In this document: positions 1 to 11,045 of the stretch, piece after piece
How the letters are laid out: every line of letters starts with the position of its first letter
Position numbering within the stretch: the stretch's first letter is position 1
NCBI GenBank assembly: GCA_964247135.1
Contig: CAXTTL010000164.1
Span: 1-11,045 of the forward strand
DNA length: 11,045 nt
Source of the DNA: an uncultured Deinococcales bacterium
Lineage (GTDB): Bacteria; Deinococcota; Deinococci; Deinococcales; JAAFIG01
Reading direction: 5' to 3'
Program-made: the position numbers and the translations under genes
Notes under the pieces: model-generated
Databases searched by the model: none
What the model was told of the DNA's origin: nothing
Seen by the model: only the letters and a program-made list of their open reading frames with translations

Positions 1-334
1 CAACCGCGCAGAGCAAACCGGCAACAATCGTGGCGGGCAAAAACCCCAAATTGTAACCAGCCAGAAAACCAGGCAAATCGGGCAGGTAAGCCAGTTTTTT
101 GGAAACACTGAGCGTCAAAATGCCGCTCGAGTACGCGCCAAGTGCCATAAAGCCAACATGCCCGAGCGAAAACACGCCCGTAAAACCGTTTGAAAGCCCA
201 AGGCTGGCGACGAGGATGATATTGATACCCATGACGATCAGGACACGAACGAGGTATTGCGGCAACATATTCGGCACCAACAAGGTGAACGTTGCGAGCA
301 AGCCAAGCGCGATGATGAGCCTCGAGTATTTCAC
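1..334 (-). CDS. livM: Branched-chain amino acid ABC transporter permease, LivM type (3'-truncated by window edge)
   Basis: Not in the ORF track. Manual translation from GTG at 334 gives MKYSRLIIALGLLATFTLLVPNMLPQYLVRVLIVMGINIILVASLGLSNGFTGVFSLGHVGFMALGAYSSGIL..., open to position 1. It has the LivM-type G(F/Y)TGxxSLGHxxFxxxGAY motif, a GTGA overlap with the livH stop, and AAGAGG upstream. Confidence 0.9.
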   Translation of the reverse strand, partial: MKYSRLIIALGLLATFTLLVPNMLPQYLVRVLIVMGINIILVASLGLSNGFTGVFSLGHVGFMALGAYSSGILTLSVSKKLAYLPDLPGFLAGYNLGFLPATIVAGLLCAV

Positions 335-1236
335 AGTTTGACCTCTTGTTTGACGCCGACAATGCCACCAGGTCTAAACAGCAAAAACGCGATCAGCAGC
401 GTGAAGACAATCGCGTCGCGGTACGCGCCCAAACCCCATTCGCTCGGCAAACTCTGGATCAAAACCTCGAGCGCCCCGAGCACAAAACCGCCAATGATGG
501 CGCCTGGAATGCTGCCGAAGCCACCGATGATGGCAGCGACAAAAGCCTTTAATAGCGGCGTGAAACCCATGTGCGGTTCGACCACGCCCGCCTGCGCCGC
601 CCAGAGCACGCCAGCCAACCCTGCGAAGCTGGACGCCATGACAAACGCCACGACAATCACCGTGTTGACGTTGATGCCGACCAGATAACTGGCGGTCAAA
701 TCCTCGGCGGCGGCTCGCATTCCAAGCCCAACTTGGGTGTTGCGCACAAACCATGCCAGAAACAACAGTGCTGCCAGGGTCAAGCCAAAGGTCAAAAGAT
801 TGATGCTGGTAAAAGAGATTCTTCCGTCTGCCAGGTTAAACGAAGCGCCAAGCCAGTCAGGAAGCGGAAAATTCCGTGGACTCGAGGTAAAAATTAAAAT
901 GCCCAGATTCTCGAGGATGTAGGTGAGCGCCACGCTGGTCAGCAGCATGGTGACATCTGGAGCGCCGCGCACCGGACGGTAGGCGACCCGTTCGATGATG
1001 ATGCCCACCAAAGCCGAAATGACGATGCCGAGCAAGACCGCCAGCAAAAACGGAACGCCCGCCATCTCGAGCACCAAGGTCCCGAAGGCGCCAACCATCA
1101 TCATGTCACCGTGGGCAAAGTTGGTTAAGCGCAAAAGCGAAAAAATGATCGACAATCCGACTGCCACCAGCGCAAACATGCTGCCTTGGCTGACGGCGTT
1201 GATGATTTGTTGCAAACTGTACTCGAGGATGTTCAT
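331..1236 (-). CDS. livH: Branched-chain amino acid ABC transporter permease, LivH type
   Basis: 301 aa, hydrophobic. Motifs QQIINAVSQGSMFALVAVGLS, NFAHGD, IERVAYRP, GMRAAAED, KAFVAAIIGGFGSIPGA, RPGGIVG. ATGA overlap with livF. Confidence 0.93.
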   Translation of the reverse strand: MNILEYSLQQIINAVSQGSMFALVAVGLSIIFSLLRLTNFAHGDMMMVGAFGTLVLEMAGVPFLLAVLLGIVISALVGIIIERVAYRPVRGAPDVTMLLTSVALTYILENLGILIFTSSPRNFPLPDWLGASFNLADGRISFTSINLLTFGLTLAALLFLAWFVRNTQVGLGMRAAAEDLTASYLVGINVNTVIVVAFVMASSFAGLAGVLWAAQAGVVEPHMGFTPLLKAFVAAIIGGFGSIPGAIIGGFVLGALEVLIQSLPSEWGLGAYRDAIVFTLLIAFLLFRPGGIVGVKQEVKL

Positions 1237-1979
1237 GCCGCCCTCGCGTCAAGTTCAATTGCGCCACCCAAATAGGCTTGCGCGACGCGTTCGGAATTGG
1301 CGCGAAGTTCACTGGCGCTGCCCTCGAGCACGATTTCGCCGGTGCGGAGCACGTAAGCACGGTCTGCCAAGTTCAGGGCGATGTTAACGTTTTGTTCGAC
1401 CAGCAAAATGGTCGTGCCAGACTTTTTAAGTTCCGCCAGGGTCGCAAAAATTTGGCGAACGATCAGCGGCGCAATTCCGAGGCTGGGTTCGTCGAGCAGC
1501 AGCATTTTCGGGCGATTCATCAAAGCCCTCGTCAGCGCCAGCATTTGTTGTTCTCCACCCGAAAGCGTGCCAGCGGTTTGGGTTTTTCGCTCCGATAAAA
1601 TCGGGAACATGTCAAACATCCGATCAACGTCAGATTGAATGTTTTCTTTATCAACCCGTTGACTCGCGCCCAACCGCAGGTTCTCGAGCACGGTCATGCC
1701 TGGAAACACCCGCCGTCCTTCTGGAGTGTGCGAGATGCCCAATGCCACAATTTGAGTTGGGTTGAGTTTCGAGATGGGTTGGTTGGCGTAACTGATGCTG
1801 CCCGATTTAGCTTTGACCAACCCCGAAATGGCACGTAAGGTCGTACTTTTTCCCGCGCCGTTCGCCCCCAAAAGCGCCACCACCTCGCCAGATTTTACCT
1901 CGAGCGAAACATTTTTGAGCGCCCGAACCGCGCCGTAATTGACCTCGAGCTGCCCGAGTTTGAGAAGCGTTTCACTCAT
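1233..1979 (-). CDS. livF: Branched-chain amino acid ABC transporter ATP-binding protein, LivF type
   Basis: Walker A GANGAGKST, PEGRRVF, signature LSGGEQQML, Walker B LLLDEPSLG, VEQN switch typical of LivF. ATGA overlap with livG. Confidence 0.94.
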   Translation of the reverse strand: MSETLLKLGQLEVNYGAVRALKNVSLEVKSGEVVALLGANGAGKSTTLRAISGLVKAKSGSISYANQPISKLNPTQIVALGISHTPEGRRVFPGMTVLENLRLGASQRVDKENIQSDVDRMFDMFPILSERKTQTAGTLSGGEQQMLALTRALMNRPKMLLLDEPSLGIAPLIVRQIFATLAELKKSGTTILLVEQNVNIALNLADRAYVLRTGEIVLEGSASELRANSERVAQAYLGGAIELDARAA

Positions 1980-2755
1980 GCGGCTGCCTCTTCGCTGGCG
2001 CCCAAATACGCCTCGCGCACGCTCGGGTTGGCTTGCACCTCGAGCGGTGAACCTTGAGAGATGGTGTTGCCATACGCCAGCACCTGAATGCGTTCGCAGA
2101 GGTTCATGATCAAGTCCATGTCGTGTTCAATCACAATCACCGCAACTTGATAATGGTCGCGGATTTGGCGAATCAACTCGAGCAGCGCCCTCGTTTCGCT
2201 CGAATCCAGACCGGCGGCGGGTTCGTCGAGCATCAATAATTTTGGTCGTGTGGCGAGCGCCCTGGCGATTTCGAGGCGGCGTTGATCGCCGTAAGGCAGA
2301 CTGCCCGCTTTGTCGTGAAGTCGAGTCTCGAGGTTCACCAATTTTAGCACCTCGAGGGCGGTGGCATCGATGGCGCGACTTTGCGCGTTCATACCGCCAA
2401 ACAGGGCTTGCGCCAGGTTGATTGGATGACGAAGTTGGGCACTGACACGGAGATTCTCGAGCACGGACAGTTCTTTAAAAAGGCGCGTACCTTGAAAAGT
2501 TCGGGCAATTCCCAACCTGGCGATTTTGGCGGGTTCCAAACCACCAATCTCTGTCCCCAAAAGTTTGACGCTGCCCGAAGTGGGCGCAATAAAGCCGCTG
2601 ATGACGTTAAACAACGTACTTTTGCCGCTGCCGTTCGGACCGATCACACCGATCAACTCGCCAGCTTGGACCCGTATCGAATGGTTTTGCAGGGCGACCA
2701 GCCCTTTGAAGGCTTTGGTGAGGTTGTTCGTCTCGAGCAATGGTGCGCTTGGCAT
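1976..2755 (-). CDS. livG: Branched-chain amino acid ABC transporter ATP-binding protein, LivG type
   Basis: GPNGSGKST, GIARTFQ, LPYGDQRRLEIARALA, LDEPAAG, IEHDM, VREAYLG. The ATG at 2755 is preferred over the GTG at 2770 because a TGnTATATT box lies 5 nt before it. Confidence 0.92.
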   Translation of the reverse strand: MPSAPLLETNNLTKAFKGLVALQNHSIRVQAGELIGVIGPNGSGKSTLFNVISGFIAPTSGSVKLLGTEIGGLEPAKIARLGIARTFQGTRLFKELSVLENLRVSAQLRHPINLAQALFGGMNAQSRAIDATALEVLKLVNLETRLHDKAGSLPYGDQRRLEIARALATRPKLLMLDEPAAGLDSSETRALLELIRQIRDHYQVAVIVIEHDMDLIMNLCERIQVLAYGNTISQGSPLEVQANPSVREAYLGASEEAAA

Positions 2756-2760
2756 TGGTG

Positions 2761-2769
2761 AATATATCA
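2761..2769 (-). promoter_or_regulatory. Putative extended -10 box of a leaderless livG transcript
   Basis: Minus strand TG-A-TATATT-CACCA-ATG, with no clear Shine-Dalgarno before the ATG. Confidence 0.5.
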
Positions 2770-2910
2770 CTTTCTGGCACCAGGAGTGACTGCCATTTTG
2801 GATACGCCCTCGAGCCTCGAAAAAGACGTGGACATCACGCTCGAGCCTGTGTTATGCGGAATTAACGAGAACACTCCGTTATTCCGTACTTTTGCCACTC
2901 CCGTTGGTCG

Positions 2911-2942
2911 GGGGAACAGTCGATAAAGCATGACTGTTCCCC
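2911..2942. repeat. Perfect 11-bp inverted repeat (hairpin) between the kinase and livG
   Basis: GGGGAACAGTC, 10-nt loop, GACTGTTCCCC. There is no U-tract on either side. Confidence 0.75.
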
Positions 2943-3050
2943 GCAATTCGGTACTAGATTCTTTCACAATCTCGAACCTAAGCTTAAATTGCACGCAACA
3001 TGAGGCGCTTGGCAATCATCAATACCAAGGAAGTGCTTTGCGCAAAGTGT

Positions 3051-4553
3051 TCAAGTATTTTTGACTTTCTCGAGTTTTTCTATCAGGCGAATTTCGGTTT
3101 GATTGGTACGCCACGGCAAAAGGACATCGATTGTTGTCCCGACACCAACCTCGCTAGCGATCACAACCTGCCCTTTGTGCGCCTCGACGATCCATTTGAC
3201 GATGCTCAAACCCAGACCGCTGCCGCCCATTTGCCTGTCCCTGGCGGTATCGACGCGGTAAAAACGGTCAAACAGGCGCTCGAGGTGTTCCTGGGCAATG
3301 CCTGGTCCGTTGTCTTTGATTCGCAAGCGAATGCGTTTCTCGAGCGGCTCTTTGATGACCGCCACCAAAATATGGCTCGCGCCAGCCTTGAGGGCATTTT
3401 GCACCAGATTGCGAATCACCTGACGAATCCGGTTGGGGTCAACGAAGGCTTTGATTTCTCGGTCGCCCTCAATTTCGATTTCGGTGTCTCCAGCGATGGC
3501 AACAATCTCGAGGTGAACATCTTCGGCAAGTCCGACCAGACTGGTTTCGACTGGCTCGAGCGGAAAACCCGCGTCGGCTCGAGCCAAATCCAGAAGGTCA
3601 CCGATCAATTTCCCGAGACGCACCGACAGTGTGGTGATTGCCTCGAGCGACTCTCTTTGCTGGTCGGTTGGGTTGGTGCGCCGCAGCAAGTAACTGGCAT
3701 GACCACCGATTGCCGTGACCGGCGTGCGAAGCTCATGGCTGGCGTCGGCGGTAAAGCGGCGCTGGGTTTCAAAGCTGTGCTCGAGCGACTCGAGCATCCC
3801 GTTCAAGGTGTGCGCCAGGTCTTGCACCTCGTCGTTGGTGCCTGGTTCTGGAACCCGCCGCGAGAGGTTCGAGATGCTGACTGAACTGGCGGCATCGCGT
3901 ACCGCACGAATTGGCTCGAGCGCACTGCCCGCCAGAGAATACGAACCGATGGCAGCCAGACCCGCACCCGCCAAGGTCACGATCAGCAAGGTGCGTTGCA
4001 GGGTTGCCAGCAATTCATCGTTGGTACTTGGGTCCCTGGCAACAAAAATGACATTGGTAATTTTGGTTCCACCGTTCGCAGCCAAAACGTCTGGTTCGAT
4101 CAGGGCGCGAACTTCGACAGGTTTTGGCTGTTCAAGAGATAAAAAACCGCGCCCAGCAAATTCTCGGTTTCTCAGCAAAGCCGCATAATCATCATCACCC
4201 AAACGAATCTCTGCACCCAATTGCTCGAGGGTTGGGTTCGGATACGATGTGGGTTGAAGCGATGAAAATGACTGTATATCGATGGCGTCAGGTGTACCGT
4301 AAAACCGTAAAACAACTGCGAAAGTCTCTTGAGAAATACTCGACCAGTCATTCGTCAAACCGTTGCTGATCGGATGGCGTTCTTCATTGGCTTGGTTTAA
4401 ACGCCGTATTTGCTCGAGGTTGGAGTTCAAATCCGACTCGAGGTTTTGACGGATGTTGCTGCTGATCTGCGAATAGACCGCCACAAAGACGCCCGTCAAC
4501 AGCAGGGCAATCAGGGCGGTGTAAAGCAATGTCAAACGCCAACGCAGTGTCAA
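3051..4553 (-). CDS. Membrane-bound two-component sensor histidine kinase (2 TM, extracytoplasmic domain, HAMP, HisKA, HATPase)
   Basis: 500 aa from TTG with GAGGTG upstream. H-box FTADASHELRTP, N-box NLVQNALK, G1 DNGPGI, F-box LFDRFYR, G2 GGSGLGLSIV. Two hydrophobic segments near aa 7-27 and aa 189-208. Confidence 0.95.
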   Translation of the reverse strand: MTLRWRLTLLYTALIALLLTGVFVAVYSQISSNIRQNLESDLNSNLEQIRRLNQANEERHPISNGLTNDWSSISQETFAVVLRFYGTPDAIDIQSFSSLQPTSYPNPTLEQLGAEIRLGDDDYAALLRNREFAGRGFLSLEQPKPVEVRALIEPDVLAANGGTKITNVIFVARDPSTNDELLATLQRTLLIVTLAGAGLAAIGSYSLAGSALEPIRAVRDAASSVSISNLSRRVPEPGTNDEVQDLAHTLNGMLESLEHSFETQRRFTADASHELRTPVTAIGGHASYLLRRTNPTDQQRESLEAITTLSVRLGKLIGDLLDLARADAGFPLEPVETSLVGLAEDVHLEIVAIAGDTEIEIEGDREIKAFVDPNRIRQVIRNLVQNALKAGASHILVAVIKEPLEKRIRLRIKDNGPGIAQEHLERLFDRFYRVDTARDRQMGGSGLGLSIVKWIVEAHKGQVVIASEVGVGTTIDVLLPWRTNQTEIRLIEKLEKVKNT

Positions 4554-4605
4554 AACGCACCTCGAGTGCTGAGATTGCGGGTTCTACACTTTTTTCCACT
4601 TCGCT

Positions 4606-4649
4606 TCTTGACCATAAAATGCACCTGTCTTGACCCTAAAGATGCACCT
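4606..4649. repeat. Tandem imperfect 21/22-bp direct repeat upstream of the kinase
   Basis: TCTTGACCATAAA-ATGCACCT (4606-4626) and TCTTGACCCTAAAGATGCACCT (4628-4649). Confidence 0.8.
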
Positions 4650-4771
4650 AGCGGGCTGGGTCGCTTCGGGCATGGTCGCTCCAAAAAGTTCCAAACCCTT
4701 CATCTCAACACCATTCCCTGCTCGCCTAGCTCGGAAAGTGCTGCGCACTTTCGGGAATTTTGCCAATTTCA

Positions 4772-4797
4772 ATCATAAAGGGCGGTCAAGCCGCCCT
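4772..4797 (-). terminator. Probable weak intrinsic terminator after the response regulator
   Basis: Minus strand AGGGCGG-CTTGA-CCGCCCT followed by TTATGAT, about 22 nt after the stop codon. Confidence 0.55.
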
Positions 4798-4819
4798 CCA
4801 AACCATTCCTCGAGATTGA

Positions 4820-5497
4820 TCACTCCTCGCGCAAGACATAACCGACACCGCGCACGGTGTGAATCAGACGGCGTTCGCCGCCCTCCTCAAGTTTGCGGCG
4901 CAAGTACCCGATGTAGACATCCACGACGTTGCTGCCGCCGGTGTATTCGGGCCAAACCTTCTCTTCAATTTCAAACCTCGAGAAGACCTTGCCTGGGTTG
5001 CGTGCCAGCAACTCGAGCAGCTCGAATTCTTTCGCTGAGAGTTCGACGCGGCGTCCGCCCCTGAAGACTTCGCGTCCGTCGAGGTTCATGACCAGATCGG
5101 CGACGCGAACCTCGCCGGTCACGGCTGGGTTGACGCGGCGCAAATGGGCGCGAACCCGAGCCAACAGTTCTTCGATGGAGAACGGCTTGACCAAATAATC
5201 GTCCGCTCCGGCATCAAGTCCTTCGACCTTGTCGCTGATCGCGTCTTTGGCGGTCAGAATGACGATTGGCGTGTTCGAGGTTTTACGAACCCGACGTGCA
5301 ACTTCAAGTCCGTCGAGCACGGGCAGCATCAGGTCGAGGATCAGCAGGTCGGGGTTGACTTCTCTAAATTTTGAAAGCCCTGTGACCCCGTCAAATGCCA
5401 CTTCGGTCTCATATCCTTCAGCATTCAGCTCGAGTTCGATAAATCGGGCAATGTCTTTTTCGTCTTCGACGACCAGCACCAATGGTTTGCGTTCCAT
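4820..5497 (-). CDS. OmpR/PhoB-family DNA-binding response regulator (225 aa)
   Basis: Receiver domain VLVVEDE...ILDLMLP...LTAKD...[10 protein letters not shown], winged helix LSAKEFELL...[15 protein letters not shown]...IHTVRGVGY. Start moved to the ATG at 5497 (MERKPL), which has TATAAT 6 nt upstream. Confidence 0.96.
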
Positions 5498-5503
5498 GAC
5501 CGC

Positions 5504-5509
5504 ATTATA
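5504..5509 (-). promoter_or_regulatory. -10 box of a leaderless response-regulator transcript
   Basis: Perfect TATAAT-GCGGTC-ATG with no SD sequence. Confidence 0.72.
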
Positions 5510-5644
5510 TGAGAACAATCATGAGAGCCAGACCATTCATCACATGAGAAGTTTCTTCGTGCCTAACAATCAATATTTGATAAAGGTTTCAAAAGCCTGT
5601 CTCAGAAAGGATTCATGATTAAAGTCCCGTCATCTTTCGTGTTT

Positions 5645-6538
5645 TCAAATCCCCAACAATGCCCGAGCCGCCGTTTTATCAAGCTCGAGTTGGTCTTTTA
5701 AGGCGTCCAGCCCAGCAAATTTTTGTTCGCTGCGCAGTCGATCTAAAAAATCCACACGAACTTCAAGACCGTACAGATCGCCAGAAAAATCAAAAACAAA
5801 AACTTCGAGCGATTCGGTCATGCCATTCACGGTTGGACGCGTTCCGACGTTCGCCATGCCGCCCCGAAGCACACCGTCCGGCGTCTCGAGTTGGACCGCA
5901 AAAACTCCAGGTGGCAGAATTTTACCGTTTGAGACGGCGATGTTGGCTGTCGGAAAACCAATCGTGCGACCCAATTGTTTGCCAGTCACCACCACGCCGC
6001 GTGCGCTGAACGGTCTCCCCAGAAACGCCCGCGCCGCCTTGACGTCCCCAAGCTCGAGCAGCCCCCTGATCTTGGAGGCTTTGACCACCTCGCCAGAAAA
6101 TTTGAGTTGCTCGAGGGCGATCAATTCTGTGGTGATCTGACGTAAATCTTCCAAACCACCACTTCTATGCTGTCCAAAACGAAAATCATTGCCGACCACA
6201 ATGGCTTTAGGCTCGAGGACCCGCAAATCCTCGAGAAAAGCCTCTTTGCTGCGCTGAGAAAACTGAATCGTGAACGGAACCGTCACCACTTCATCGACAC
6301 CGTAATGTTCGAGAATTTTGAGTTTTTCCGCCAGCGTGTAGAGGTATTTTGAACCCTCGAGCAAGACCCGCGTCGGCTGGTCAAAGGTATAGACCACGCT
6401 TGGGACGTGATGCTCGAGCGCCAAAGACTTTTGACGCGCCAACAAAGCCTGATGCCCAAGGTGCAAACCATCAAATGAACCGATGGCGAGAATGCTGGGC
6501 GTGTGGGGACGGTCGAGGGGATTTTGGTAAACGAGCAT
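5645..6538 (-). CDS. ribF: Bifunctional riboflavin kinase / FAD synthetase
   Basis: IGSFDGLHLGHQ (HxGH), VGNDFRFG, GRTIGFPTAN, GMANVGTRPT, FDFSGDLYG, LRSEQKF. Confidence 0.96.
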   Translation of the reverse strand: MLVYQNPLDRPHTPSILAIGSFDGLHLGHQALLARQKSLALEHHVPSVVYTFDQPTRVLLEGSKYLYTLAEKLKILEHYGVDEVVTVPFTIQFSQRSKEAFLEDLRVLEPKAIVVGNDFRFGQHRSGGLEDLRQITTELIALEQLKFSGEVVKASKIRGLLELGDVKAARAFLGRPFSARGVVVTGKQLGRTIGFPTANIAVSNGKILPPGVFAVQLETPDGVLRGGMANVGTRPTVNGMTESLEVFVFDFSGDLYGLEVRVDFLDRLRSEQKFAGLDALKDQLELDKTAARALLGI

Positions 6539-6579
6539 AAACCATTAAAACCTGTAGGCTTAAAATCAAGTGTCCTGAT

Positions 6580-6601
6580 GGTTCAGCTTCGGTTCAGCTT
6601 C
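6580..6601. repeat. Perfect 11-bp tandem direct repeat upstream of ribF
   Basis: GGTTCAGCTTC GGTTCAGCTTC, overlapping the 10-bp palindrome GCTTCGAAGC (6597-6606). Confidence 0.8.
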
Positions 6602-6692
6602 GAAGCAAATACTCGGTGGCAACCAGGTGTCCCCCACCCTGGTGACAAAGCTCGAGCGGATCAACCATTTTACTTCATTCGCTCGAGCCTTT

Positions 6693-8015
6693 TTACAATC
6701 TTGGCATTTTCCCGCCAAACAAATTCGCCAAACCGCGACCTTTTGCGCCTTTCATCATGCGCATCATGTCTTTCATCTGCTCGTGCATTTTGACCAGGCG
6801 GTTCAGTTCTTGCACGGTCACACCCGAACCCGTGGCGATCCGGCGGCGGCGCTGCCCATCGATCACTTTCGGATTGCGGCGCTCGCGTAAGGTCATGCTC
6901 GAGATCATGGCTTCAATGCGTTTGAACTGCTTTTCGTCCACGTTGACATCGTCGGGCAGCGCCCGCGAAAGCCCTGGAATCATTTTGACGATGTCACCTA
7001 TCGAACCCATGCGCTGAATGGATTTGAGTTGCTCAAGCAAATCTTCAAAATCAAAATCGCCCGGTTTTTTCGGCGCGAAGGCTTTGATGTCGGCTTGCTG
7101 GGCGCGTTCAATCAGGGTTAAAACGTCACCCATGCCCAGAATTCGCTGCGCGATGCGGTCAGGATAAAACGGCTCGAGTCCAGCAATTTTTTCCGAGACG
7201 CCAGCGAAGACAATCGGTTTGCCAGTCACGCTTCGCGCCGAAAGTGCCGCGCCACCTCGAGCGTCACCGTCGAGTTTGGTCATGATTAAGCCCGAAACGC
7301 CGATGCGTTCATCAAAGGCTTTGGAAACATTCAATGCCTCCTGACCGGTCATGGCATCGACCACCAGGAAAGTCTCAGATGGGGCAAGTTGCCCCTTGAG
7401 GTCTGCCAGGGCGTCCATCAGGCTCTCGTCAATCTGAAGACGCCCTGCGGTGTCCACAATCACCAAATCGTGATAGTTGGTTTTCAGGTACGCCTCGAGT
7501 TTGGACTTGGTGAGGCTCGGCAGTTCGTTATCGCCAACCTCGAGCACGGGCACGCCGACCTGCTGACCCAAAATCCTCAGTTGCTCTCGAGCGGCGGGGC
7601 GTTGCGTGTCGGCGGCAATCAACAGCGGTCGGCGACCCTTGGATTTGTACATGGCGGCAAGCTTGCCCGTGGTGGTGGTTTTACCCGCGCCCTGCAAACC
7701 GACCATGAACCAGACGTTGCCCTCCTGTTTTAAAACAGGTTGTTGCGCCTGACCGCCGAGCGTTTCGACCAGTTCGTCGTAAACGATTTTGACCACTTGC
7801 TGCCCAGGGGTAAGTGAACTTAAAACCTCTTCGCCGATGGCTTTTTCCTGCACCTTGGCAACGAAATCTTTTGCCACCACAAAATTGACATCCGCCTCGA
7901 GCAATGCCACCCGAACCTCGCGCAAGGCGGTCTTGACATCGTTTTCGTTCAGTTTGCCGCGACCGCGAAGACCTTCAAAAATATCCTGGAGTTTTTTGCC
8001 TAAAGAATCAAACAT
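6693..8015 (-). CDS. ffh: Signal recognition particle protein Ffh (440 aa)
   Basis: True start MFDSLGKKL at 8015. Motifs [50 protein letters not shown], and a Met-rich M domain (SMTLRER). Confidence 0.98.
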
Positions 8016-8021
8016 GTTTTT

Positions 8022-8027
8022 ATTGTA
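8022..8027 (-). promoter_or_regulatory. -10 box of a leaderless ffh transcript
   Basis: TACAAT-AAAAAC-ATG (6-nt spacer) with no SD sequence. Confidence 0.68.
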
Positions 8028-8087
8028 CCGTGCCGACAAACTGCCGAAAGTGAAATCTGGTGATGTTTGTATCCTTAATGCTCGAGA

Positions 8088-8109
8088 TATGATGAACAAA
8101 GTTAAGGAG
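8088..8109 (+). promoter_or_regulatory. Putative -10 box and Shine-Dalgarno of bcp-rpiA
   Basis: TATGAT at 8088-8093, and AAGGAG at 8104-8109, 5 nt before the ATG at 8115. Divergent from ffh. Confidence 0.55.
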
Positions 8110-8114
8110 CCATC

Positions 8115-8570
8115 ATGGAAAAAGCACCCGCGTTTAACTTGCACGACCAAAACGGCAAACAACACTCGCTCGAGGACTTTAAGGGCAAATACCTGGTCTT
8201 GTACTTTTACCCCAAGGATGACACCCCAGGCTGCACCAAAGAAGCCTGCGATTTCCGCGATCAGATCGGCAGCCTGCGCGAACTTGGTGCGGAAGTGCTG
8301 GGCGTCAGTGCCGATGACACCTCGAGCCACGAGCAGTTTGCGGGAAAATACGGACTCAATTTCCCGCTCCTGGCAGATGACGGCGCAGTGATTGCCAAAG
8401 CCTACGGGGCTTACGGCAAAAAAAACATGTACGGCAAAATCAGTGAAGGCATCATGCGCAAAACTTTTTTGATTGATCCAAACGGCGAAATCGTTAAGGC
8501 TTGGGGCAAGGTCAGCGTCGAGGGACACGTCGAACAGGTCACGGCGGCACTCAAGGCAGCCCTGGCATGA
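8115..8570 (+). CDS. bcp: Thioredoxin-dependent thiol peroxidase (BCP/PrxQ peroxiredoxin)
   Basis: [22 protein letters not shown] (PxxxTxxC with CxxxxC resolving Cys), [20 protein letters not shown]. Confidence 0.95.
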
Positions 8571-9256
8571 CCGACCTCGAGACATTCAAACAACAAGCCG
8601 CGATTCAAGCCGTGACCCACGTTCGTTCGGGCATGGCGGTTGGGCTTGGCACGGGCAGCACCGCCAAATACGCGATCCTCGAGATTGGTCAGTTGGTGCG
8701 CGAGAATAAACTCTCGGGAATAGTGGGCGTGCCGACTTCGGAGGCATCGGCACAGTTGGCAATTGAAAACGGTATTCCGATTGCGGAACTGACCGCAGCA
8801 GGCGTCGAGGTTGCCATTGACGGCGCGGATGAAATCGATCCCAACCTCGATTTGATCAAAGGTCACGGCAACGCGCTGGTCAAAGAAAAACTGGTCGAAT
8901 TCAACGCCAAACTTTTTATTGTGGTCGCAGACTCGAGCAAGCTGGTCGGTCAACTTGGTGAGAAGTTTTCGGTGCCCGTTGAAATCATGCAGTGGGGTTA
9001 CAAAGCGACGCTGATTCAACTGGCAGCCGTTGCGCCGCAAGTTCAAGTGCGTCAGCACATGATCGACGGACAACCCGTGATCTCGGACAATGGAAATTTT
9101 ATCGCACACTGTACCTTCACCGAAATCAAGAACCCTCGAGAAACCGAAGACCGCATCAAACATATTCCAGGTGTGATCGGCACGGGCTTGTTCTTGGGAC
9201 TGGCTAAAATTGCTTATGTCGCAGGGGAAAATGGTGTTCAGAAACTCAAACGTTGA
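8567..9256 (+). CDS. rpiA: Ribose-5-phosphate isomerase A (229 aa)
   Basis: Start at ATG 8567 (ATGA overlap with bcp). Motifs [50 protein letters not shown]. Confidence 0.93.
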
Positions 9257-9300
9257 GGCTCGAGCCACGACGGATTTCAACACGCTTTTTCATGGAACTT

Positions 9301-9309
9301 TGGTAACTT
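9301..9309 (+). promoter_or_regulatory. Putative extended -10 box of a leaderless lipoprotein gene
   Basis: TG-G-TAACTT-GAAGC-ATG with no clear SD sequence. Confidence 0.45.
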
Positions 9310-9314
9310 GAAGC

Positions 9315-9809
9315 ATGAAATCAATTCGACCAGTTCTGCTGTTGGTTTTCTCGAGTTTGGTGGCGTGCGGTGGCACGACCCCCGAACAACCACCAGTCAA
9401 ACCGCCACCCCCGCCCGCAGGTTCGTTGTACAAGTTGGTCAGCACACCAAAGAACACGCCAACGGGTAAAATCTCAACCAAAACCGATGAGATTTGGGTG
9501 GACAAAGGCGGCAGCATTCAACTGGTCATCAATGCGCAACGCCTCTCGCCGCTCGCCAAAAAAATCAAAATTACGGTCAGCCCCTCAGGCTCGCATTTAA
9601 GCGTCACCCCGCTTGAGCAAATCGTTTCTGCGACGGGCAACGCCACCTTCACGGTTTCCGTGGACTCGAGCATCAACCCCGCGACAGACCCAAATCCTTA
9701 CTTTTTCGTTTACGGTTATCCGTTGGGCGATAATGACCGTTCGCTCGATGAGGAAATTCGCTTGGATTATGGCTGGGACATTAAAAAACCACCAACCATT
9801 GCGCCGTAA
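9315..9809 (+). CDS. Uncharacterised lipoprotein (164 aa)
   Basis: Signal peptide MKSIRPVLLLVFSSLVA-C (lipobox LVAC), Pro-rich linker (PEQPPVKPPPPP), then a beta-rich segment. Followed by a terminator. Confidence 0.8.
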   Translation: MKSIRPVLLLVFSSLVACGGTTPEQPPVKPPPPPAGSLYKLVSTPKNTPTGKISTKTDEIWVDKGGSIQLVINAQRLSPLAKKIKITVSPSGSHLSVTPLEQIVSATGNATFTVSVDSSINPATDPNPYFFVYGYPLGDNDRSLDEEIRLDYGWDIKKPPTIAP

Positions 9810-9830
9810 ATTCAAACCTCGAGCCTCAAT

Positions 9831-9864
9831 AAAAAAAGCGCCCAGGATTCACCTGGGCGCTTTT
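9831..9864. terminator. Bidirectional rho-independent terminator between convergent genes
   Basis: AAAAAAA-GCGCCCAGG-ATTCA-CCTGGGCGC-TTTT. Confidence 0.9.
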
Positions 9865-9876
9865 AAATTTAAATCT

Positions 9877-11045
9877 TTAGTTTGTCAGACCCAAGGCATT
9901 CTCGAGTTCGGTACGTGGCGCATCGGCACGTTTGCCGTACAGTCCGCGCCAAGCATCCTCGGTTTCGTAACCGCCATCTGGTCCTAGAATGTTCAGCCCT
10001 GGTTTGATGTACTGCTTGATGGCGTCAGAATCGGTGGCTTGGCGGGCAGCCTTGCCGTAAACGTCGGTATAAAATGTTCCATCGTTATCTGGGTCAAGCA
10101 GCCTGACGGTATCGTTGTATTTGAGGGTTAAATTCGGTACAAAGAATGTTCTTTCATCGCCGTGGGAGTCATTGGTCACGGTCTGAGAGCAGGTTAAATC
10201 GTTGCAGGTTGTGCTTGGGTTGCGAATGTCAATCTCGAATTTCGGGAAGGCATGACCTTTTTCGCTGCCGCCGTCGAACCAGTCGGCAACGTCCAAGCCG
10301 AGCGTAGGATTGAGTCCGCCCTGCCAGTTTTCGTAACCGTTGTTGCGATCTTGACCGTCGCCCACACTCTTGACCCGAATGCGCTTAAAATATTCGGATT
10401 GAACGTTGGTGGCAATCGCTGCCTGATCTGGACAGGTACCAGCACCCTGAATCAATGGATGTTTACCGGCAATGTCGTTGTTGGTCTGTGATGATCCAAA
10501 ATCACCCTTGTAGCCAAGCTCCGCCACAATATTGTCTGGGTAGGTCTTTTTCAGGTCGGTGACGATGATGACCACCGTATGCTTTTGCGTGCAGACGCGG
10601 TGCAAGTCGTGGGTTTCGGAGTGCACATTGATGTACCAGCCGTAACCGTGCTCGGTGTCCCGAATCGCAATTCCCTTAAAGCCCTCGTGAATTTCCATTT
10701 GGTTGTTGTTCTTGGCGGCGACATACTCGAGCGCCCAACCTGGCAAGCCCACCAAGGCTGGGTCAGAGCCGTGTTCGTGCCTGAAATAACACCAGTACGC
10801 GGGGTCAATTTGTGGATGCCAAGATTTGTACATCACGCCGTCAGGTCCTGGGGTCGAGTACAGGCTGTCGAGCCAGGCTGGGCATGTGTCGTTGGCAACG
10901 GGCAGCGTCGAACCTGCGGGTGCATTGGTCGCCAGCGTTGGCGCAGGTGTCGCCGTTCCATTGGCTTCGGCAAAGACAACCGTGTATGCCTTGTCCGTGC
11001 CCGCTTTGCCTGGAGAACCCAGTTTGATCTCGCCTTTGGGAAATG
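9877..11045 (-). CDS. Uncharacterised, probably secreted protein with HEHG motif (5'-truncated, at least 388 aa in the window)
   Basis: The frame of the 9877..10836 ORF stays open to the window end by manual translation: ...FPKGEIKLGSPGKAGTDKAYTVVFAEANGTATPAPTLATNAPAGSTLPVANDTCPAWLDSLYSTPGPDGVMYKSWHPQIDPAYWCYFRHEHGSDP... It is rich in D/N/G/T, has several Cys, and ends at the terminator. Confidence 0.82.
   Translation of the reverse strand, partial: FPKGEIKLGSPGKAGTDKAYTVVFAEANGTATPAPTLATNAPAGSTLPVANDTCPAWLDSLYSTPGPDGVMYKSWHPQIDPAYWCYFRHEHGSDPALVGLPGWALEYVAAKNNNQMEIHEGFKGIAIRDTEHGYGWYINVHSETHDLHRVCTQKHTVVIIVTDLKKTYPDNIVAELGYKGDFGSSQTNNDIAGKHPLIQGAGTCPDQAAIATNVQSEYFKRIRVKSVGDGQDRNNGYENWQGGLNPTLGLDVADWFDGGSEKGHAFPKFEIDIRNPSTTCNDLTCSQTVTNDSHGDERTFFVPNLTLKYNDTVRLLDPDNDGTFYTDVYGKAARQATDSDAIKQYIKPGLNILGPDGGYETEDAWRGLYGKRADAPRTELENALGLTN

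Follow-up and report, generated by a model that had tools for sequence, protein, structure and literature searches.

The subject of this analysis is CTCGAG, a palindromic hexamer that recurs throughout an 11,045-nt stretch of DNA from an uncultured Deinococcales bacterium (contig CAXTTL010000164.1 of assembly GCA_964247135.1; the whole stretch is referred to as the window), and its closest described counterpart is HIP1 (highly iterated palindrome 1, GCGATCGC) of cyanobacteria. HIP1 is described as 15- to 300-fold enriched, with conservation both inside and outside coding DNA and a periodic distribution on the scale of 10 to 90 kb (PMC5861425). [quoted passage not shown] After thirty years the function of HIP1 is debated, and HIP1 is treated as a cyanobacterial peculiarity.

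Two further kinds of system deal with short words at the scale of a genome. The DNA uptake sequences (DUS) of Neisseria and the uptake signal sequences (USS) of the Pasteurellaceae are non-palindromic words of 9 to 12 nt that occur about once per kb and for which an uptake bias has been shown experimentally; they are thought to spread by point mutation combined with biased uptake, they mark proteins and they are scarcer in imported DNA. The Dcm/Vsr system, with its excess of CCWGG in E. coli, biases repair in such a way that a methylase target becomes more frequent; its effect is small and it drains one neighboring word.

CTCGAG resembles HIP1 and the alternate HIPs in being a short GC-rich palindrome that is tens-fold enriched in all frames and in non-coding DNA, and in spreading by substitution rather than insertion with interspecies conservation above background, as described for HIP1 (PMC5861425; PMC13756078). 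As is also described for HIP1, it makes use of disfavored codons (CGA in the case of CTCGAG) and is patchily distributed, with close relatives that lack the word. It differs from HIP1 in being a hexamer rather than an octamer, in belonging to the phylum Deinococcota, in its very high density (6.7 per kb), in that no cognate methyltransferase common to its carriers was found, and in that its one-mismatch variants are conserved below average whereas those of HIP1 are described as conserved (PMC5861425). Like DUS and USS, CTCGAG is a short word over-represented genome-wide and common to related species, leaves a mark on proteins, is scarcer in imported DNA and shows a local excess just downstream of genes; unlike these words of 9 to 12 nt, it is a 6-bp palindrome with no conserved extension and a density of 6.7 per kb. 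A single 6-bp site offers little specificity; any discrimination would have to rest on the density of sites. CTCGAG is also the very target of XhoI/PaeR7I-type enzymes, and XhoI-family nucleases with adjacent methyltransferases are present in seven of 363 genomes of the order; unlike the targets of such systems, which are normally avoided, it is 25-fold enriched, and the nuclease is found in none of 19 genomes of the family. Finally, in contrast to Dcm/Vsr, the enrichment is 25-fold, drains no neighbor and involves six positions, and no Vsr gene was found.

We consider it very probable that CTCGAG is a HIP-like word that is kept by a directional, selection-like force. The fuller statement, in which this force would act through a factor that reads the word and in which the word would mark DNA of the cell's own kind, we hold tentatively and put slightly below an even chance. 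As a HIP phenomenon outside the cyanobacteria, CTCGAG is real, large and lineage-wide. It provides an independent case in another phylum, with a different and shorter word and with no obvious methyltransferase partner found, and no earlier report of the enrichment was found in the open-access literature.

Enrichment and conservation of CTCGAG

The window is one contig (C164) of a genome, G000, of 5,091,702 bases in 386 contigs (median length 9.3 kb) with 52.7% GC, 84% completeness and 1.8% contamination. Its Ffh places G000 within the Deinococcales, with 84% identity to a 'Deinococcales bacterium' metagenome bin and ~70% to Deinococcus species. The window contains exactly 67 copies of CTCGAG, between 126 and 10731 (6.1 per kb), which is the number counted by hand in the original prediction; 200 dinucleotide-preserving shuffles of the window gave a mean of 2.33 copies and a maximum of 7, and 67 was reached in none. 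The whole assembly carries 33,925 copies (6.66 per kb, or one per 150 bp), and the second-ranked palindromic hexamer, TTTAAA, has 3,272. The enrichment is not restricted to one contig: every one of the 386 contigs carries the word, at 2.6 to 11.3 per kb (median 6.8), and among 1,473 windows of 5 kb the minimum is 8 copies and the mean 33. GAGCTC, which has the same composition and had been noticed as missing, is absent from the window and likewise from the entire genome.

The claimed enrichment of about 20- to 25-fold corresponds to an observed/expected ratio (O/E) of 24.8 under a zero-order Markov model and extends far beyond the window. Under orders 1, 2, 3 and 4 the O/E is 35.2, 14.4, 3.45 and 1.24, and CTCGAG ranks first among all 4,096 hexamers under orders 0 to 3. 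The enrichment thus survives a tetramer-preserving null, with an O/E of 3.45 and the top rank; the order-4 null is uninformative and merely restates the enrichment because in G000 CTCGA is followed by G in 88% of cases. TCGA lies inside CTCGAG in 62% of cases, and the 20,685 copies outside it are at the expected level (19,771 for all TCGA at order zero). Flanking bases in G000 are weakly biased: 39% of sites have G at -1, 38% have C at +1, and no position further out is notable; no larger repeat unit was found around the sites, and a palindromic extension of at least 4 bp, as for a hairpin, is present at just 180 of the 33,925. Since the flanks carry little information and there is no larger repeat, the unit is the hexamer, as had been supposed from the variable flanks, and it exceeds the roughly 15-fold genome-wide over-representation from which a palindrome counts as a HIP.

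The word is indifferent to reading frame and to coding status. Genes were called crudely genome-wide as 4,560 longest open reading frames (ORFs) with over-extended starts, covering 87% of G000, and CTCGAG occurs at 6.5 per kb in this coding part and at 7.5 per kb in the remainder. Strictly intergenic DNA (506,715 nt, 47% GC) carries 3,938 copies versus 110 expected, an O/E of 35.9, with 8.1 per kb in convergent, 8.0 in tandem and 6.9 in divergent spacers. The 28,780 genic copies compare with 4,032 after shuffling of synonymous codons within genes (10 replicates), so that under a codon-shuffled, amino-acid-preserving null about 7-fold enrichment remains, and this holds in every frame: the readings CTC-GAG, xCT-CGA-Gxx and xxC-TCG-AGx account for 17,529, 4,569 and 6,682 genic sites and for 3,110, 339 and 583 after shuffling, that is an excess of 5.6-, 13.5- and 11.5-fold in which the out-of-frame readings exceed the in-frame reading. 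CTCGAG is over-represented in all frames and in non-coding DNA beyond what codon or peptide use gives; it is a bare 6-bp word of double-stranded DNA, neither a mobile element nor a codon or peptide effect, and the HIP1-like character ascribed to it earlier (frame-independent, intergenic as well as genic, with a bare 6-mer as unit) stands.

This pressure on DNA reshapes the proteome. Leu-Glu occurs 22,865 times in the G000 proteome versus 9,580 expected, a ratio of 2.39 that is the highest among dipeptides (Glu-Leu 1.01, Ser-Ser 1.63) and that amounts to about 13,000 extra pairs. CTCGAG writes 77% of the Leu-Glu pairs through its 17,529 in-frame copies. Leu is written CTC in 82% of cases when Glu follows and in 15% elsewhere, and Glu is written GAG in 84% of cases when Leu precedes and in 33% elsewhere. 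Both kinds of rewriting can be followed in ffh, in which the family has GCT-CGA-GAC/GAG, with a rare codon, where outgroups have the synonymous GCC-CGC-GAC/GAG, and in which Leu-Glu stands in the family where outgroups have Leu-Thr, Leu-Val, Val-Asp or Leu-Gln.

Existing sites are conserved as such. In an alignment of G000 with its relative G045 (248,493 columns, 85.1% identity), 77% of the 191 non-coding CTCGAG sites are intact, as against 45% of all hexamers, and the three frames retain 82.5% of 918, 70.5% of 264 and 81% of 376 sites. Among the 1,340 strand-merged hexamer classes with at least 60 occurrences it ranks second, with 79.8% kept versus a median of 44%. Of the hexamers lying 6 to 24 nt away on either side, 39 to 45% are intact, and per-base identity is 0.93 to 0.95 for the bases of CTCGAG and 0.80 to 0.89 for those around it. 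Conservation is confined to precisely the six bases of the word, in coding and non-coding DNA alike, and the loss of existing copies is about three- to four-fold slower than that of other hexamers. The sites are conserved in orthologs beyond matched controls, which supports a directional force that keeps them. In the window itself, comparison with five congeners gave 66 to 81% of CTCGAG kept and 40 to 45% of controls.

Turnover in the window is balanced: 7 to 16 sites are private to the window and 8 to 14 to the genome compared with it. At aligned orthologous positions the presence of CTCGAG differs by single substitutions, so that the word spreads by substitution and not by insertion of this or a larger unit; losses and gains are mostly transitions and affect all six positions, with 59, 54 and 42 losses at position pairs 1/6, 2/5 and 3/4. 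The one-mismatch neighbors are not drained: genome-wide their O/E is 0.5 to 1.8, save for those containing the generally avoided CTAG, with 1.16 for CTTGAG and 1.17 for CTCAAG. They are conserved below average, and in the sister species 12 to 25% of them appear as full sites. As a separate observation, hexamers with CATG (CATGCG, GCATGA, ATCATG and others) are conserved to the same extent as CTCGAG (0.68 to 0.82 versus a median of 0.44); these may be survivors of CATG avoidance at constrained positions.

Within the genome, sites avoid one another at close range: their pair correlation is 0.51 for distances of 1 to 30 nt, 0.90 for 31 to 60 nt and near 1.05 for larger ones, and up to 3 kb the only periodicity found is the 3-nt codon period. 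The first 30 nt after stop codons carry 12.2 copies per kb versus about 6.5 elsewhere, with 180 to 187 sites starting two bases after the stop and about 45 at neighboring positions; no longer hairpins were found around these post-stop sites. At the finest scale, a start-to-start spacing of 6 is never seen, because GAGCTC would arise, and a spacing of 8 occurs in 11 cases versus 87 at 7 and 115 at 9.

CTCGAG is all but universal in genes, with at least one site in 98.6% of ORFs of at least 600 nt (42 of 3,088 are without). Among the 25 CTCGAG-free ORFs listed, 19 have a GC content of 0.26 to 0.43, and the most codon-atypical decile of ORFs carries 4.95 sites per kb versus 6.2 to 7.2 in the middle deciles. 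DNA of recently imported appearance lacks CTCGAG, and in this lineage the word can serve as a sharp marker for binning and for the recognition of imported DNA. A PF01555 methyltransferase gene at G000:C189:4856-5632, with 39% GC and no CTCGAG, has the appearance of such a recent import.

Distribution across Deinococcales and relatives

The family of G000, uncultured by appearance, comprises 18 other genomes in five genera and is represented mostly by incomplete metagenome bins (completeness 57 to 94%). In all 18, CTCGAG occurs at 3.3 to 9.1 per kb in the 3.4 to 20 kb around ffh, with an O/E of 11 to 30 at 46 to 64% GC; a further 350 kb of G045 gave 6.4 per kb and a Leu-Glu O/E of 2.58. An order-wide scan of 363 genomes for three copies within 36 nt of each other (G333 enters in the totals only) gave 108 to 1,026 matches in each of the 19 family genomes. 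The enrichment is thus lineage-wide as well as genome-wide. In the 111 genomes of genus g7, which we take to be Deinococcus because named Deinococcus loci behave alike, there are 0 to 1 matches; elsewhere, genomes of genus g9 have 0 to 3, those of Meiothermus-like genera 5 to 151 and those of family f2 0 to 78.

The comparison across Deinococcota that had been proposed as a check reveals sharp contrasts. In genus g35 of another family, G216 and G217 have 431 and 578 pattern matches and their congener G218 has none. Sampled DNA of G217 carries 7.5 copies per kb (O/E 29.5), with a Leu-Glu O/E of 2.71 and no GAGCTC, whereas sampled DNA of G218 carries 0.30 per kb (O/E 1.3) with a Leu-Glu O/E of 1.24. 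Proteins of both genomes are about 57% identical to those of G000, and G217 is therefore not a misfiled member of the family. In Deinococcus the word is avoided: six loci (126 kb) contain 6 copies, an O/E of 0.14, with a Leu-Glu O/E of 1.0. In these loci 10 of 297 Leu-Glu pairs are written CTCGAG and TCGA is at the expected level. A genus that includes both rich and poor genomes, and sister lineages of which some enrich and others avoid the word, are natural contrasts that bring the question of what fills a genome with one palindrome within reach of comparative genomics and simple experiments.

A different pattern is seen in genus g9, which is probably Thermus-like (2-Mb genomes with 65-71% GC; 16 genomes sampled at 16-20 kb each). 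TCGA is 2 to 5 times below expectation in these genomes, and 34 to 100% (median 85%) of the remaining TCGA lies inside CTCGAG versus about 11% for random flanks. CTCGAG seems to be exempt from the TCGA purge in g9.

One reading of this distribution, which on balance we find doubtful, is that the Deinococcota possess an ancient system for reading CTCGAG with lineage-dependent outcomes, that is accumulation, holding, shielding or reversal. Under such a scheme the word would have piled up 25- to 36-fold, with rewriting of proteins, in the family of G000 and part of g35; Meiothermus-like genomes would hold it at 6 to 8 times expectation; Thermus-like g9 would shield it from the TCGA purge; and Deinococcus would have lost or reversed the system and now avoid the word. 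If so, CTCGAG would be the first HIP outside the cyanobacteria and a density-coded mark of own-kind DNA that is independent of a recognizable methyltransferase.

Forces that may maintain the word

Combining the enrichment of 25- to 36-fold with neighbors that are not drained, gains of an ordinary kind everywhere and loss that is three- to four-fold slower, we suggest that the complete word is subject to a site-level fixation bias, by selection or by a selection-like drive, in a stationary process. Such a bias would have a scaled strength near ln(25 to 36) = 3.2 to 3.6 per site. The pressure suffices for synonymous recoding, for amino-acid replacement and for a 2.4-fold excess of Leu-Glu. Given the indifference to frame and coding status and the palindromic form, double-stranded DNA may be recognized by a symmetric protein: the palindrome would be read by a vertically inherited, probably dimeric factor that binds or modifies DNA and that would not be among the recognizable restriction-modification methyltransferases. 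By analogy with current work on HIP1, the likeliest role would be that of an 'own-kind' mark favored in uptake or recombination, through selection or molecular drive. ComEC is present in 18 of 19 family genomes, which permits a role in uptake and lends no support to it.

Several observations weigh against this interpretation. Our searches yielded no protein that reads CTCGAG, and its purpose is a matter of inference only; natural selection, biased uptake or recombination and a repair bias acting at six positions fit the data alike. Competence genes are also present in Deinococcus and Thermus, which lack the extreme enrichment. Sites are spaced near randomly (coefficient of variation 0.96) with a short-range deficit only, and even spacing has been described for uptake sequences. 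A scan of viral contigs for the cluster pattern (at least 126 stretches) gave no phage with the family signature among the matches listed; among the 80 listed loci of at least 4 kb, the densest are on high-GC contigs, mostly with GAGCTC as well, and look like an effect of codon usage. Gains and losses were not polarized by an outgroup, the raised gain and lowered loss being deduced from stationarity, and the product of the two effects is about 9, short of 25. The aligned non-coding DNA is the alignable and hence more conserved part, 'non-coding' is itself approximate because the gene calls are crude, and most family genomes are incomplete.

Alternatively, the origin of the enrichment could be coupled to methylation: an orphan methyltransferase would mark CTCGAG, and methyl-directed or very-short-patch repair would restore and fix sites, in the manner of Elhai's ratchet or of a Dcm/Vsr-like bias. 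HIP1 and the alternate HIPs are described as co-occurring with cognate methyltransferases (PMC4390886; PMC13756078), the escape of CTCGAG from the TCGA purge in g9 looks as though the word were separately protected, and methyltransferases are numerous in CTCGAG-rich genomes. Profile searches of G000 (PF04555, PF01555, PF00145, PF07669, PF02384, PF02086 and PF03852), together with a screen of the 4,560 crude ORFs for the motif [DNS]PP[YFWH], gave at least 12 candidates; the motif was present in 41 ORFs, 33 of them not known before, of which 21 were scanned against Pfam and three with PADLOC, and the screen added one candidate, M (C51:9055-10599). Candidates C, E, F, G and M have no assigned specificity, whereas H, I, J and K are type I, type IIG or helicase-fused by appearance. 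In g35, moreover, CTCGAG-rich G217 has 2, 5 and 7 matches to three methyltransferase families (14 in all) and CTCGAG-poor G218 has 0, 0 and 0, a contrast that a general difference in restriction load fits as well as a specific link.

The distribution of these enzymes argues in the other direction. Six candidates (B, C, F, G, L and M), traced through the family or the order, are patchy: close relatives are present in about 4 to 7 of 19 family genomes and weaker matches in 6 to 17, none is family-wide, and several genomes of 91 to 94% completeness lack them. The complete one-contig genome G030 has no PF01555 match. Two candidates, B and L, are partners of PvuII-type and SacI-type nucleases and so belong to ordinary restriction systems for other words. 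The XhoI-family nuclease PF04555 is present in 7 of 363 genomes of the order, in none of the 19 in the family and in none of the 111 in g7; the methyltransferases beside it (six PF01555, one TaqI-like) have relatives in G000 and the 19 family genomes at the motif level only (best E 3.5e-17). With the nuclease absent from the family, its linked methyltransferases without close relatives there and the target enriched instead of avoided, XhoI-type restriction-modification was rejected. No methyltransferase, with or without an endonuclease, common to CTCGAG-rich genomes was found, and from the profiles and motifs searched a HIP1-style cognate methyltransferase is not evident in the family, although its bins are incomplete and an enzyme of an unrecognized kind is conceivable.

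The repair step of the methylation-coupled scheme fares no better. G000, which is 84% complete, contains neither an XhoI-family nuclease (PF04555) nor Vsr (PF03852), and CTTGAG and CTCAAG are undepleted, on which grounds very-short-patch repair of the Dcm/Vsr type was rejected; likewise, a path that converts one particular mismatch is a poor fit to undrained neighbors and to gains at every position. CpG transitions are not the commonest losses, the 42 at the central pair being fewer than the 59 and 54 at the others, which argues against 5-methyl-CpG. Finally, a ratchet lowers loss without raising gain, yet 12 to 25% of the one-mismatch neighbors are full sites in the sister species. The orphan methyltransferase with biased repair offered as an example in the original prediction is therefore not supported so far, and we regard a methylation-coupled origin as unlikely. 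Digestion of these genomes with XhoI would result in shredding or in no cutting and would in this way report the methylation state.

The same searches uncovered restriction cassettes with targets of their own. At G000:C36:19236-21059, methyltransferase B adjoins a gene for a PvuII-family nuclease (E 9e-67), and such a PvuII-type system fits the near-absence of CAGCTG (15 copies in the genome); G217 has a copy of B at 67% identity together with the neighboring gene. Methyltransferase L adjoins a SacI-family nuclease (29.7 bits versus a cut-off of 19.3): within G000:C320:1061-2985, a D12-class methyltransferase gene (C320:2152-2985, on the minus strand) overlaps the downstream SacI-family gene, and the absence of GAGCTC is attributed to this SacI-type system, which has differing neighborhoods in G000, G030 and G217. 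Candidate M, of 514 residues, has no Pfam match at E <=1e-5, but a PADLOC type II methyltransferase model covers it from end to end (E 2.5e-153). Its start is overlapped by a 217-residue gene of no known family, and relatives sharing 37 to 93% identity occur here and there in the order, one Deinococcus-genus genome included. Many other palindromic hexamers are nearly absent from G000 (GGGCCC 1 copy, CGGCCG 3, AGGCCT 4, CGTACG 5, GGATCC 7, CCGCGG 11, GCATGC 17, ACTAGT 18, AGATCT 25), and this recurs in G045 and G217 and not in G218. The rare palindromes suggest very heavy past restriction pressure in CTCGAG-rich genomes.

An architectural role is a further alternative, in which CTCGAG would bind an abundant nucleoid-associated or chromosome-organizing protein and selection would keep a dense carpet of sites. 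Such a role would account for uniform coverage of the whole genome, for the equal treatment of coding and non-coding DNA and for the scarcity of second sites within 60 nt (0.51 and 0.90), as with diminishing returns, and a structural role has been proposed for HIP1 (PMC5861425). No candidate protein was identified, and the codon period was the only periodicity up to 3 kb; we judge this role distinctly unlikely.

It is also conceivable that the word has no function and results from a pure context-dependent mutation or repair bias, by which near-matches are turned into CTCGAG and CTCGAG is seldom destroyed. At equilibrium an asymmetry between gain and loss would equally give undepleted neighbors and sites that appear conserved, and the data do not measure fitness. 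Such a bias would need to act at all six positions and on all 18 neighbors with an ordinary transition/transversion spectrum, and we know of no polymerase or repair activity of this kind. Xu et al. give an argument against the replenishment of HIP1 by biased repair (PMC5861425). We give this explanation a slim chance. That the abundance of CTCGAG follows from codon or dipeptide usage, from a wealth of TCGA, from a dispersed repeat or from assembly or binning, for which one might cite the 61% of coding copies that are in-frame Leu-Glu and the order-4 O/E of just 1.24, is refuted by the intergenic O/E, by out-of-frame readings enriched above the in-frame reading, by TCGA at the expected level outside CTCGAG, by Glu-Leu that is not raised and GAGCTC that is absent, by flanks that are unique, and by the same sites at the same places in independent assemblies, a one-contig genome included.

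Sites and genes of the window

Genes in the window were assigned from longest ORFs and Pfam. The 67 sites comprise 46 CTC-GAG (Leu-Glu), 5 xCT-CGA-Gxx (Ala-Arg-x), 6 xxC-TCG-AGx (x-Ser-Ser/Arg) and 10 outside called genes (2809, 2840, 4561, 4809, 6651, 6682, 8081, 8169, 8321 and 9818). The earlier description of copies in all three frames and between genes is correct overall, and several of its individual assignments are revised: sites 126 and 321 read Leu-Glu here, in an unverified ORF, and not Ser-Ser/Ser-Arg, 8321 is non-coding, 8932 and 9259 are Ala-Arg-x, and 9135 is Phe-Ser-Arg. Site 9259 lies within the first codons of an ORF without a family match.

Each reading is represented in identifiable genes, all on the minus strand. 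An in-frame Leu-Glu copy (CTC GAG), one of the 46, lies at 466..471 in a livH-like permease gene. In ffh, the copy at 7586..7591 reads GCT CGA GAG (Ala-Arg-Glu) where outgroups have GCC CGC GAC/GAG, and thus arose through synonymous recoding; it is equated by arithmetic from the start of the ffh reading frame, and not from the alignment table, with alignment column 427, at which CTCGAG is present in 13 of 16 family genomes and in none of 27 outgroup genomes. Similarly, the copy at 7256..7261, GCT CGA GGT (Ala-Arg-Gly), is equated by arithmetic with column 760, at which 7 of 16 family genomes and 0 of 27 outgroups have the word. The third frame is represented in ffh by ATC TCG AGC (Ile-Ser-Ser) at 6898..6903 and in a response-regulator gene by TTC TCG AGG (Phe-Ser-Arg) at 4977..4982.

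Among the non-genic copies, two (2809 and 2840; 2809..2845) are in the spacer between a livG-like gene and a histidine kinase gene, with unique intervening DNA, two (4561 and 4809; 4561..4814) in the spacer between the histidine kinase and response-regulator genes, and two (6651 and 6682; 6651..6687) in that between ribF and ffh. The pairs 6651/6682 and 2809/2840 have an equal spacing of 31 nt and unrelated sequences. Three copies (8081, 8169 and 8321; 8081..8326) are upstream of the likely start of ffh and would be non-coding if ffh starts near 8018. The ffh frame, 6693-8585, comprises 630 codons without a stop, but residue 195 is the first of the SRP54 domains and the length of relatives is about 440 residues; for these reasons the true start is probably near 8018, which would make 8019-8410 non-coding. 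A single copy at 9818..9823 lies between two ORFs without a family match. An Rfam scan of the window gave no match. For the three ORFs at 8411-9283, 9315-9809 and 9877-11043 (of 290, 164 and at least 388 residues) Pfam gave no match either, and the first of them has relatives at 67 to 74% identity that are confined to the genus.

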